UHGV virus genome: UHGV-1420800
Source: a virus
DNA: 24,301 nucleotides
Reading direction: 5' to 3' (one strand)
Shown here: piece by piece, positions 7,319-24,301 of the stretch
Layout of the letters: each line of letters opens with the position of its first letter
Position numbering within the stretch: the stretch's first letter is position 1
Position numbers and translations under genes: made by a program
The notes under the pieces: generated by a model
Told to the model about the DNA's origin: nothing
Database searches by the model: none
What the model saw: only the letters and a program-made list of their open reading frames with translations

Positions 7319-7758
7319 TAGCGATAATTCTACTCATCATCCTTCACATCTGGCTCTGTAGACAGGGTGGTGATCACTTCTGGAGTGAATCCAGATTAAA
7401 CATCTCATTGCTGATGCTTGAAGTTGAGCATCTGGCGCGCGGTAAGGGGCTGCGTTGAGATAAGAGCCAGTTCATTACAAATCCTATCTACGGGTGGGCT
7501 TGATAATGAAACCGGAGTTAATTTCTGGTCACTAATTAACGGCAGTACAGCGAAACAACCCAAGCCAGTAAGCGGGGAAATAACACTGGCAGCCACTGAA
7601 AGATGAACCTCCTGCCTTATGGCAAAAAAGATTCTTTGTGGTGGCGGACTGATGGAAAGACATCGGATAGAATCAAGCAGTGGCTAGGGTAGTTCCCGAA
7701 AAGCGGACTCGTCACCGCCTGCCACTGAATCTATGGCGAACAACTAGACGAGGTTGTG

Positions 7759-20753: not shown

Positions 20754-23147
20754 ATGGCTAATTACCGTGATTTGTTAGAGCAGGCTGGCGCACGTTACGG
20801 TGTGCCAGAAGGGTTGATGACTGCACTGGGTGCCAAGGAGTCTTCTTACAACCCTGCCGCAGTAAGCTCCGCCGGGGCTGTAGGATTGACTCAGGTCATG
20901 CCTGGGACATGGCGTGATATGGGTTATACCGATGAGCAAATGCAAAACCCCGAATATCAGGCTGACGCTGGCGCGCGCTATCTGGCAAAGATGTACCAGC
21001 AGTTTGGTAACTGGCGTGACGCTCTTCAGGCTTATCACGACGGTCCCGGCAACGTTATGAAGGCAAAGCGTGGTGAATATACGCCAGGGCCTGAAGGCCG
21101 CGGTTACGTTGATGATCGCTTTGCTCAATGGGCGGGTGACCCGGTGACAGACTCAACAGTAGAACAGCGCGCCACCTCTGCAAAGGTACATCCTCAGCAA
21201 GACCCTAACAACCCGTTTGCACAACTGGAAGCACAGTCATCCGAACAAGTATCGGCATCAGGCGTGCAGTCAGACCCAAATAATCCATTTGCTCAGATTG
21301 AGCAGCAGGCAGCCAGTCAGCAGCCACCTCAACCCGTAAGTTCTGTCGCACCGAAACCTGTTCAGCAGCAAGGCGGAATAATGTCTGACCTTGGTAATGG
21401 ACTTGCTGAAACCGGGCGCGGCTTACTACAGGCAGGAATCAACGTAGCGAACATACCTGCTGAACTCACTGATGCTGTAACAAGCGCGGCGGCTTGGGCT
21501 GGCGGTAAACTCGGCATTGGCGATGGTACATATCAACCAGCACCACGAGTAACAACGCAGGGATTAGAGCAGGACTTTGGCCTTCAGCAAGGCGCGCTGA
21601 CTCCACAAACGACAGAGGGAAGGGTATTTGCTGAAGCATTGCCTTACCTCACTCCTGCTGGCGTTGAGAGAGCGGCAGCACAGGCACCAACACTTGCTGG
21701 TCGAATTGCTCAGGGGGCAACTCGCCTTCTCGCAGAAAACGCAGTTGGATCACTTGCTGCAAACAGTGCGAAAGATGATGCGGAAGCACTCGCCACCGAT
21801 TTAGGCGTTGGTGTGCTGGCTGGCGGTGCTATTAACGCTGCCGGACGTGGATTAGGTGCTGCTTATCGTGGTGTTCGTGGTTCGATAGCACCAGAAGCGC
21901 AACAGGCTATCAGATTTGCAGAACGTGAAGGAGTTCCTCTGCACACCACAGACCTGTTACAACCCATTTCCCGCGTCGGAAAAATGGCGCAGACGACAGC
22001 GGAAAATATCCCCCTGGCTGGCACAAGCGGAATGAGAGCAACGCAACAGGAAGCGAGAAGCCAGTTGGTGCAGAGATTTGCTGATAAATTCGGTGAGTAT
22101 GATCCAGCTGTTGTTATTGACAGCCTTAAAGCGAAAACATCAGGAATTCGTCGTGCTGCAGGGAACCGTCTTGAGCAGGTTCAGAATGCTATGGCGGGAA
22201 TAAACATTCAGCCTGCAAGAGCAATTCAGCAGATTGATACAGAAATATCTAACCTGCAGAAGCTTGGTAAGGTTGCTGATAACGAGACTATTTCAAAACT
22301 TCAGTCCTATCGTGATGAGCTTGTTCGCAATGCTGGTCCTGATGGTCCGGTAAATCTGGATTTGAAGCAATTAAGCGATCTGCGCAGCCAGTTCAGAATG
22401 GACGTGAAGGGGGAGCGACCAGTGTTACCAAACCGTTCCGATGCTGCCATTCAGCGCGTTTACAAGGCAATGACCGACGATATCAATGGTGCCATTGGTC
22501 AGAATCTTGGCAACGATACTCTCCGTAAATATCAGCAGGCCAATGCCGTCTACGCTGACGAAGCGGCGAAACTAAAGAATACCAGGCTGAAGAATGTTCT
22601 CATGAAAGGCGACCTGACGCCGGAAGTTGTCAACAACATGCTATTCAGCAAGAACAAATCGGAAATTAAGACGCTGTATAACTCAGTTGGTCGTGTTGGC
22701 AGGGCGCAAATGCGCAATGGCATCATTGGAAAGGCGATGGAGAAATCAGGTGGTTCCCCTGACCAGTTCCTTCGACAGCTTAACATCCTGCAAAACCAGA
22801 CTGGCATCACATTTAAAGGTCAGGAAGCCGCTTATCTGAAAGGATTGAAAAACTACCTGCAATCCACGCAGCAGGCTGCAAAAGCGGCAGTAACAACACC
22901 AACAGGGCAGCAAACCATCCCGTTCATTATCGGATATGGGACAGCAATGAACCCTGCGACAACTGGCGCAGCGGTAAGCTACGGACTTCTTACTCGCGCC
23001 TATGAGAGCGAGCCATTCAGAAATGCAATGCTCCGAATGGCAAACACCCCACGCGGATCAACAGCGTTCGAGAAAGCCATGCAGCAGGCACAAAAGGCCA
23101 TTAACGCCCTGACTCAGGGGGCTAAGTCTGATGCGCTGTCAGAATAG
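20754..23147 (+). CDS. 16: Ejection protein gp16-like with N-terminal soluble lytic transglycosylase (SLT) domain
   Basis: 797 aa. Residues about 20-100 carry the SLT signature ...AKESSYNPAAVSSAGAVGLTQVMPGTWRDMGY...YLAKMY...AYHDGPG (catalytic Glu in the ES motif). The rest is Ala/Gly/Gln-rich like E proteins. Confidence 0.8.
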   Translation: MANYRDLLEQAGARYGVPEGLMTALGAKESSYNPAAVSSAGAVGLTQVMPGTWRDMGYTDEQMQNPEYQADAGARYLAKMYQQFGNWRDALQAYHDGPGNVMKAKRGEYTPGPEGRGYVDDRFAQWAGDPVTDSTVEQRATSAKVHPQQDPNNPFAQLEAQSSEQVSASGVQSDPNNPFAQIEQQAASQQPPQPVSSVAPKPVQQQGGIMSDLGNGLAETGRGLLQAGINVANIPAELTDAVTSAAAWAGGKLGIGDGTYQPAPRVTTQGLEQDFGLQQGALTPQTTEGRVFAEALPYLTPAGVERAAAQAPTLAGRIAQGATRLLAENAVGSLAANSAKDDAEALATDLGVGVLAGGAINAAGRGLGAAYRGVRGSIAPEAQQAIRFAEREGVPLHTTDLLQPISRVGKMAQTTAENIPLAGTSGMRATQQEARSQLVQRFADKFGEYDPAVVIDSLKAKTSGIRRAAGNRLEQVQNAMAGINIQPARAIQQIDTEISNLQKLGKVADNETISKLQSYRDELVRNAGPDGPVNLDLKQLSDLRSQFRMDVKGERPVLPNRSDAAIQRVYKAMTDDINGAIGQNLGNDTLRKYQQANAVYADEAAKLKNTRLKNVLMKGDLTPEVVNNMLFSKNKSEIKTLYNSVGRVGRAQMRNGIIGKAMEKSGGSPDQFLRQLNILQNQTGITFKGQEAAYLKGLKNYLQSTQQAAKAAVTTPTGQQTIPFIIGYGTAMNPATTGAAVSYGLLTRAYESEPFRNAMLRMANTPRGSTAFEKAMQQAQKAINALTQGAKSDALSE

Positions 23148-23236
23148 CTTCGCAAACACCATGAACGTGCAAAAACCAAATATGTAGAACGCAATATTCA
23201 GCATATCTCTGTGCATAAATCCTCCGTAACGGATGG

Positions 23237-23497
23237 TTATCTGCTGTCTTTTTTATATAGCTTCTTGAGCGTATCAAAGACAATTTTCTTAACCATATCA
23301 GATTGTTGTTCTGCCATACGCTCTGCATCGTCAATGTAAACTGATGCAGAGCTTTGTTTATCCAATGATTCCTCAATCGCTGCAATTATCTCTGAGTTCA
23401 GCGACCTGTTATTCATCTTCGCACGCTGCTTAATTTTCGAGTGGAGTTCATGCGGAAGTCTCAAGTGAAACTGCGCCTCGTCGTATTTGCTGTACAT
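23237..23497 (-). CDS. mnt: Mnt-like repressor (Arc/MetJ ribbon-helix-helix family)
   Basis: Reverse-strand ORF; from Met12 (RBS AAGGA upstream) 86 aa: ...QFHLRLPHELHSKIKQRAKMNNRSLNSEII...DDAERMAEQQSDMVKKIVFDTLKKLYKK, closely resembling P22 Mnt (RHH N-terminus, C-terminal tetramerisation helix). Alternative start at 23530. Confidence 0.8.
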   Translation of the reverse strand: MYSKYDEAQFHLRLPHELHSKIKQRAKMNNRSLNSEIIAAIEESLDKQSSASVYIDDAERMAEQQSDMVKKIVFDTLKKLYKKDSR

Positions 23498-23618
23498 CCT
23501 TGATGCCTCACCAGTTGGGTGGAATGGCATCGTAACCTACTGGATAAATACTCAATAGTACCATTTCGGTATGCAATCACATCATGGTTGCATCATATCA
23601 TTCGTCTGGAGCAATGAA
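23498..23618. promoter_or_regulatory. Divergent control region between mnt and tailspike, containing inverted repeats (candidate operators)
   Basis: Inverted repeat ATGCAA-N11-TTGCAT at 23571-23593 and a shorter TACT-caat-AGTA at 23549-23560; AT-rich; must carry the leftward mnt promoter and any rightward tailspike promoter. Exact promoter elements not resolved. Confidence 0.4.
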
Positions 23619-24276
23619 ATGTCAGATATCACCGCAAATGTTGTGGTAAGCATGCCTTCGCAACTCTTCACTATGGCTCGTTCTTTTAAAGCCGTAGCCA
23701 ATGGCAAAATTTATATCGGTAAAATTGACACTGACCCGGTAAACCCTGAAAACCAGATTCAGGTTTATGTGGAGAACGAAGATGGTTCTCACGTTCCTGT
23801 TTCGCAACCAATCATCATTAACGCTGCTGGATATCCGGTATATAACGGACAGATTGCCAAGTTCGTAACTGTGCAAGGCCATTCTATGGCTGTTTATGAT
23901 GCGTACGGTGTGCAGCAGTTCTATTTTCCGAATGTGCTGAAGTACGACCCTGATCAATTTCGAAGTGAGCTGTCTGAAGAAGATGGTGCAACTAAAATTG
24001 GATACTTGGCCGGTACAGTAGCGGATAGTTTGTCATATTGGGCAACGCCAGAGCAATATGGAGCAATTGGAGATGGTGTAGCTGATGATACAGTGGCGGT
24101 GACTAATGCTATTATGACTGGAAGATGCCTCATGAAGAGAGGTTCCACATATCGTATGGTGATGAATGAGGAAAATGTCATCACTCCCCCAGCTGGTGCA
24201 TATATTGATTTTAACGGTGCTAGAATAACTCATGAGAAAACTGGGTACCTTGTTTTTCTTAACAAAAACCAAGACG
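23619..24276 (+). CDS. 9: Tailspike protein, 5' part (P22 gp9-type head-binding domain followed by a beta-helix/pectate-lyase-like receptor-binding domain); 3' end cut off by contig end
   Basis: ATG 23619 (GGAG 8 nt upstream): [43 protein letters not shown]...[10 protein letters not shown] matches the conserved P22-like tailspike N-terminal domain. Then ...[24 protein letters not shown]..., a motif typical of right-handed beta-helix glycanases. Frame is open to the adapter junction. Confidence 0.9.
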
Positions 24277-24301
24277 CTGTCTCTTATACACATCTCCGAG
24301 C
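24277..24301. other. Library adapter: Nextera/Tn5 mosaic end CTGTCTCTTATACACATCT plus CCGAGC (start of read-through adapter)
   Basis: Exact match to the Nextera transposase adapter, mirror image of the sequence at 11-44. Confidence 0.9.

Follow-up and report, generated by a model that had tools for sequence, protein, structure and literature searches.

An mnt-like repressor gene without arc or ant beside a P22-type tailspike gene, and its candidate operator

Gene 16 and the tailspike gene are separated by a variable region that has been termed the "ant moron" (Villafane et al. 2008, PMC2629481), and versions in which only Mnt is encoded have been reported from ST64T, ST104 and L (PMC2629481, PMC8022706). 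The function of such an orphan mnt was left open in 2020 by Zaworski et al., who allowed for "another function or a remnant" (PMC8022706). The same question is raised by the virus genome UHGV-1420800, a stretch of 24,301 nucleotides (hereafter the window), in which a leftward mnt-like gene faces the tailspike gene. A preliminary description of this DNA had reported a Mnt homolog, the lack of arc and ant, and a place for mnt directly beside the tailspike gene across about 120 bp. All three observations were borne out. Both Mnt domains were recognised by Pfam and the P22 structure 1mnt was matched with E=9e-19, the divergent gap between mnt and the tailspike gene measures 121 bp, and tblastn searches of the window and of a related prophage, the complete one of E. 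coli 90-9281, detected neither arc nor ant with eight query proteins (Arc, Ant, Rha and KilA).

The gene order is an ejection protein gene (20754-23147, plus strand), mnt (23237-23497, minus strand) and the tailspike gene (from 23619, plus strand). The ejection protein, of 797 aa and in the position of P22 gene 16, has an N-terminal lytic transglycosylase domain (Pfam SLT, 2.8e-25) and is syntenic in a near-identical prophage (L211), IME10 and Sf101. Its gene is the last late gene before the mnt cassette, from which it is separated by 89 bp with no gene between. It is unlike the 609-aa gp16 of P22, and Sf101 has yet another C-terminal part, which points to mosaicism among ejection proteins. 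On the other side, the 5′ part of the P22-type tailspike gene (23619-24276, plus strand) begins at an ATG at 23619, preceded by a Shine-Dalgarno sequence GGAG (23608-23611, plus strand; the CTCCAG block is conserved in leader alignments), and encodes a head-binding domain (23619-23957; Pfam Head_binding PF09008, 1.7e-67). Similarity to L211 stops at 23956. The last 25 bases of the window (24277-24301, CTGTCTCTTATACACATCTCCGAGC) are the Nextera transposase adapter sequence; the contig therefore ends in an artefact of library preparation, which, and not biology, cuts the tailspike gene short. No match to sar RNA or any other Rfam family was found in the region, and a scan for intrinsic terminators found none after mnt or, on the late strand, before it, the folds being unremarkable. 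The locus thus lacks the divergent Pant leading to arc/ant and the sar of a complete immI, and has the layout of a Mnt-only "ant moron", with mnt, and without arc or ant, between the gene 16 homolog and the tailspike gene. P22-like prophages of E. coli often have this mnt-only layout, which is already in the literature.

The minus-strand ORF at 23237-23530 encodes a homolog of P22 Mnt with about 49% identity. Its N-terminal part is a ribbon-helix-helix of the Arc/MetJ type (Pfam Arc PF03869, 7.8e-15) and its C-terminal part is the coiled-coil tetramerisation domain (PF11423 Repressor_Mnt, 8.7e-15, 26 of the 28 profile positions). The match to 1mnt extends over 73 residues (residues 3-75 of 1mnt), and the C-terminal coiled coil is also matched by 1qey (E=6e-8). 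The start codon is the ATG at 23497, which gives a protein of 86 aa (23237-23497), because Shine-Dalgarno homology and conservation of the frame in relatives both point there; the gene assignment draws on Pfam, PDB, PGAP and pN/pS together. A GAGG at 23506-23509 on the minus strand lies 8 nt before this ATG, a spacing also seen in phage L, with a near-identical context in Gally and a comparable one in P22 (GGAG at 7 nt), and the motif GAGGCAT is found 5′ of mnt in phages L and Gally and in every relative. PGAP called the identical 261-nt CDS in L211. A 97-aa reading from the ATG at 23530 was rejected, as it is out of frame in the Serratia and Rahnella relatives and the Shine-Dalgarno sequence favours 23497.

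The recognition β-strand of the homolog reads Q-F-H-L-R, that of P22 Mnt H-F-N-F-R. Work from the Sauer laboratory reportedly identified the DNA contacts of P22 Mnt as His6, Asn8 and Arg10 on this strand. These contact residues are not all kept in the homolog, where Gln, His and Arg are aligned with them, and by alignment the change marks a different specificity class on an unchanged fold. Among 120 listed database homologs, 98 carry Q-F-H-L-R, 8 carry one-residue variants and 14 escaped the motif search; of these 14, most that are listed are truncated or have the motif too close to the N-terminus. The listed homologs reach down to 62% identity, with E. coli, E. marmotae, a Klebsiella pneumoniae complex isolate and Rahnella as named sources; the Serratia marcescens relative came from a genome-contig scan. 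One nearly invariant N-terminal domain is joined to three different C-terminal halves, which means that the DNA-binding domain and its operator travel as a unit.

The P22 record offers a guide to where that operator should lie. There, O_mnt (AGGTCCACCGTGGACCT) lies immediately against the -35 of Pmnt (TTGAGA), and Pant is on the other strand, between O_mnt and mnt. In the window, the palindrome ATACC-GAAAT-GGTAC (minus-strand reading; 23558-23572, centre 23565), here called O1, is followed by TATTGAG in a register identical to that of P22 O_mnt and Pmnt. The putative -35, TTGAGT (23550-23555, minus strand), was assigned by homology to the P22 hexamer, and the putative -10, TACGAT (23529-23534, minus strand), by position relative to the annotated P22 Pmnt. 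This TACGAT lies in the TTTACGATGC block and is invariant in every relative, Serratia and Rahnella included. Judged by sequence, candidate O1 is a palindrome abutting the -35 of the gene's own leftward promoter, with its centre at about -43 (to -45) from the predicted Pmnt start and with the site 47-61 bp upstream of the tailspike ATG. The predicted Pmnt is weak by consensus, with a 15-nt spacer, and was missed by a consensus scan; most relatives have TTGTTG and a 17-nt spacer. Both Pmnt and the operator of this allele are predictions from homology and conservation. A palindrome stands beside a TATTGAG-type -35 in six other Mnt loci, namely L and Gally (AGACCAC-N-GTGGTCT), Pluralibacter and Pectobacterium (P22-type), Phlomobacter (ATATCAC-C-GTGATAT) and P22 itself.

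A closer inspection of the relatives of the window allele reveals that the O1 half-sites, (A/G)TACC and GGTAC, are nearly invariant and are kept from Escherichia to Serratia and Rahnella, with a variable central 5 nt (GAAAT, GAAAC, TAAAT, TAAAC, GTTAA, AAAAT or GAGAC). Conservation extends from the palindrome as far as the mnt ATG, and the tailspike side has been swapped in at least five unrelated ways. O1 is also the sole intergenic TACC-N5-GGTA in a related 48-kb stretch spanning a complete prophage, where the other perfect match is inside the coat gene. The pattern alone is statistically ordinary, with 0.31 matches expected in the window at up to 2 mismatches, and O1 carries weight because of its position and conservation rather than its rarity. 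Part of the locus set was retrieved via the operator pattern and is a biased subset; the protein-retrieved sets agree with it. Taken together, ATACC-N5-GGTAC is the likely Mnt operator. A second candidate, CACC-N5-GGTG at 23509-23521, 3′ of the -10 and near the ribosome-binding site, was discarded as it lacks conservation in Serratia and in L224; ACC-N5-GGT is expected by chance about 10 times per 48 kb.

Moreover, the recognition strand and the operator change together. Where the strand has H, N and R (H-F-N-F-R, P22 type) the operator is GGTCCAC, where it has Q, N and R (Q-F-N-L-R, L and Gally) the operator is AGACCAC, and where it has Q, H and R (Q-F-H-L-R, the window) the operator is ATACC-N5.

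Set against P22 immI, the window shares a two-domain protein, a leftward mnt between the gene 16 homolog and the tailspike gene, the Shine-Dalgarno context, and a palindrome abutting the mnt promoter -35 at the same distance. It differs in the recognition strand and the operator (ATACC-N5-GGTAC, versus AGGTCCAC-C-GTGGACCT in P22), and in having no Pant, arc, sar, ant, sieA or orf59a. The cassette of the window corresponds in content to the left half of a P22-type immI (operator, Pmnt and mnt), its right half (Pant, arc, ant and sar) being absent. Another comparison is with L, ST64T, ST104 and the E. coli phage Gally. In these phages mnt is also the sole immI gene and faces the tailspike gene across a gap of 120-150 bp, and the operator and a good leftward promoter are kept while the Pant equivalent has decayed. 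They differ from the window in having another Mnt subtype (46-57% identity; Q-F-N-L-R with AGACCAC-N-GTGGTCT), and phage L carries orf62, whereas in the window mnt alone lies between the ejection and tailspike genes. The Mnt of the window would thus be an uncharacterised, distinct specificity class within a published arrangement, and no new kind of system. A further parallel is CopG of pMV158, likewise a small ribbon-helix-helix protein, first in its own operon and with a short palindrome at its own promoter; among relatives of the window Mnt, cargo genes would likewise follow in the same transcript. However, the candidate operator in the window is upstream of the -35 (about -43 to -45), not across the promoter core, and the sign of the regulation, repression or activation, is therefore unreadable from sequence.

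The same allele is widespread. The mnt-operator module (at least 80% coverage) was found in 256 of 5426 complete E. coli genomes, among them E. coli W, whose copy (NC_017664.1) is 97.9% identical, and the head-binding tailspike start in 1102 of the 5426, so that about one in four such prophages has the mnt allele of the window. A 601-bp stretch around mnt is 97% identical in phage IME10, and the overlapping part of Sf101 is 97.7% identical. In IME10, Sf101 and the 256 E. coli prophages the allele and intergenic region are the same (95-99%) and so are the neighbours, with no substantive difference. The gene is unannotated in IME10, is a "partition protein ATPase" in Sf101 (gp14) and an "Arc family DNA-binding protein" in RefSeq, and these records do not discuss it as Mnt. 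The label "partition protein ATPase", also attached to P22 mnt in RefSeq NC_002371 and to PHROG 795, is a propagating mis-annotation of Mnt homologs, corrected here. Among 80 IMG/VR loci with this Mnt, the exact 121-bp gap recurs in 61, and in none did a 3-kb neighbourhood contain a homolog of Arc, Ant, Rha or KilA. The Q-F-H-L-R Mnt is the immediate divergent neighbour of a tailspike gene in all loci examined, although the tailspike N-termini beside it are of different kinds (Head_binding, Tail_spike_N and a Serratia/Pectobacterium type).

The alleles bear the marks of constraint. Among 52 unique 86-aa mnt alleles pN/pS is 0.147, falling to 0.079 for codons 1-45 (the DNA-binding domain) across the three C-terminal types, and third codon positions account for 39 of 63 segregating sites. 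About 130 of 133 copies have kept the gene intact, and one copy (E. coli EC3) is frameshifted. These patterns indicate that mnt is maintained by purifying selection and is not decaying.

In divergent relatives, the Q-F-H-L-R mnt gene is followed by co-directional cargo genes, many of which overlap its stop codon. They include Rap1a-family genes (L220, 5258-5620; L224, 1079-1420), a ClpP-like gene (L222, 5264-5800) and ORFs of unknown kind (L219, 5261-5581; L009, 2639-3124). This arrangement suggests that Pmnt drives prophage-expressed accessory genes in the cargo-bearing relatives. P22 has orf59a behind mnt; in the window there is nothing.

In four relatives (JEP4, A3, SBF22 and L225) the 3′ side of mnt is occupied by a separate and complete antirepressor module that encodes a repressor of its own, and no full ATACC-N5-GGTAC site was found in these four modules. 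The one in E. coli SBF22 (L010, 840-915) is a complete immI-like module with a Mnt-like protein (R-F-N-I-R), Arc and a P22AR-type Ant; its ant promoter has the overlapping palindromes GGTTCTAGAACC and ACCAAGTTGGT, and ACCAAGTTGGT shares one ATACC half-site with O1.

The reading that we favour, at a probability of roughly 0.55, is that the window carries a self-contained, autoregulated, prophage-expressed Mnt cassette that is cargo-less here and cargo-bearing in relatives, with the tailspike gene outside Mnt control. Going by the geometry shared with P22, a Mnt tetramer would sit on O1 at about -43 to -45 of Pmnt (TTGAGT-N15-TACGAT). Bound there, it would adjust, with either sign, the leftward transcription of its own gene in the lysogen, and in the relatives also the level of the cargo fused behind mnt (Rap1a-like, ClpP-like and unknown ORFs). 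The transcript of the window would carry the repressor only, its cargo slot being empty. A cargo-less autoregulator has no obvious selective value, yet this one is selected, so the account is incomplete. Selection on a cargo-less mnt makes a second target in trans likely; the benefit of the gene would then be exerted on an operator elsewhere, and a possible and obvious candidate is the ant promoter of related phages.

In such a role, which the preliminary description also raised, the orphan Mnt would act on phages of the same operator specificity, whether superinfecting or co-resident, and repress their ant promoter, thereby shielding the prophage from antirepressor-driven induction. It is compatible with the autoregulated cassette and could be the payoff missing from it. 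In its favour, the gene and its recognition strand are under purifying selection with no target in cis, Mnt represses ant in P22 and antirepressors act across prophages (PMC7380047). Mnt proteins fall into distinct specificity classes, and the ant promoter of the SBF22 type has GAACCAAGTTGGTAT, which shares one ATACC half-site. The expected targets did not appear, however. In a scan of viral contigs no arc or ant preceded by ATACC-N5-GGTAC was found among the matches listed. There were at least 37 P22-like operator matches, and all those listed adjoin mnt and a tailspike gene. None of the 80 IMG/VR loci has Arc, Ant, Rha or KilA nearby either, and where an ant module adjoins mnt, in JEP4, A3, SBF22 and L225, it comes with a repressor of its own and does not contain the full site. 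The search for O1 before ant genes in other phages returned, among the matches listed, only mnt-linked sites and chance matches. We consider a role in trans against ant a possibility with the odds clearly against it.

A wider formulation, that the Q-F-H-L-R Mnt with ATACC-N5-GGTAC is a distinct and long-lived regulatory cassette retained 5′ of tailspike genes with several unrelated N-terminal types across Enterobacterales, serving as a switch for prophage moron cargo (Rap1a-like, ClpP-like and other) and/or for immunity in trans and not as a leftover of immI, is put forward tentatively, as a proposal that may well not hold in full.

It is unlikely that Mnt controls the tailspike gene by repressing a rightward promoter, namely a former Pant now fused to that gene. 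The idea that the repressor regulates rightward transcription into the tailspike gene, raised in the preliminary description, draws on the nearness of O1 to the tailspike ATG (47-61 bp) and on the constancy with which the Q-F-H-L-R Mnt adjoins a tailspike gene, even across different tailspike N-terminal families, and an influence of Mnt and Arc on read-through into the tailspike gene was speculated upon by Villafane et al. (PMC2629481). However, a consensus scan found no sigma-70-like site on the plus strand at 23050-23750, and TAAATA and GAATGG, the hexamers that occupy the place of P22 Pant, are degenerate and differ in other leader types, so a Pant-like rightward promoter was rejected both by scan and by positional homology. 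In many relatives the DNA between the operator and the tailspike gene has been replaced or split, and in a dozen of them a HNH homing-endonuclease gene, in the orientation of mnt and hence opposite to the tailspike gene, lies in between. Moreover, the same tailspike start is found without mnt in other E. coli prophages (H106-H109) and in Sf6, where the same leader works without mnt. Because no rightward promoter appears to survive, the tailspike gene is most likely read by late-operon transcription, which would be antiterminated and would run antisense through mnt, as in P22. The proposed control of the tailspike gene is thus unsupported, and the tailspike genes of such prophages would be under no private Mnt-controlled promoter.

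The HNH_3 insertions occur in L015, L017, L023, L036 and L047 (at about 2330-2870) and in L219-L221 (4341-4850). Each leaves the original leader and about five tailspike codons as a stub by the operator, the tailspike N-terminus having been replaced.

The inverted repeat ATGCAA-N11-TTGCAT, which the preliminary description had pointed to in the divergent region, does exist (23571-23593, with arms at 23571-23576 and 23588-23593) and extends to 9-nt arms with one mismatch (ATGCAATCA-N5-TGGTTGCAT). As a Mnt site it was rejected. Inverted repeats of at least 6 nt number ten in 531 bp, which puts this one at chance level, its fold is not significant (z-score of -1.4 against shuffles), and it occurs only in leader type A, that of the window, one of at least five types among the relatives; the adjoining ATACC-N5-GGTAC is conserved instead. 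The repeat is better described as part of a lineage-specific tailspike leader.

Other tailspike leaders have their own element at this place. The sequence GCCGCAGCRTGGCTACGG is common to the leaders of P22, L, Gally and many E. coli relatives (type B leaders, L018, L073 and others); it is a "boundary sequence" in the CUS-3 annotation, occurs twice in P22 (2075-2100 and 2203-2222 of L006 being listed) and could form an imperfect hairpin. In the window a different hairpin-capable repeat (23571-23593) takes its place, and a G/A polymorphism at 23587 keeps the pairing (G.U or A-U) only in the rightward RNA.

That the gene is a non-functional remnant of a degrading immI, not yet erased, which the preliminary description had considered and which is one of the two options given for phage L by Zaworski et al. 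(PMC8022706), is very unlikely: arc, ant and sar are gone, Pant has decayed and dead copies exist (the EC3 frameshift, and a Citrobacter copy with an in-frame stop and a mutated operator), but this reading is contradicted by pN/pS of 0.15 (0.08 for the DNA-binding domain), the third-position excess, a single frameshift in about 133 copies, the module in 256 complete E. coli genomes, and a subfamily and operator that span Escherichia, Serratia, Rahnella and Klebsiella. These results bear on the question stated in the phage L genome paper, whether mnt genes without arc and ant are functional or decaying. The comparative evidence points to functional, the gene being selected, widespread and often at the head of cargo operons, with an operator that co-evolves with it. 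They also supply a testable candidate operator, promoter and recognition-strand class.

Two further observations concern the operator sequence. In an unrelated phage group (GC about 0.54; L096, L101, L125, L136 and L164), the exact 15-mer ATACCGAAACGGTAC occurs twice, 515 bp apart (for example at 7579-7593 and 8094-8108 of L096). Each copy has a TATATAC box on one side and the beginning of a small gene on the other, and the terminase gene follows shortly downstream. We saw no ribbon-helix-helix gene near these copies, which could reflect chance or a shared operator type. In the Citrobacter copy (L213, 3860-4260) the in-frame stop in mnt (MYSK*DEAQF) is accompanied by a change of the operator half-site from GGTA to AGTA, consistent with joint decay after loss of the protein.
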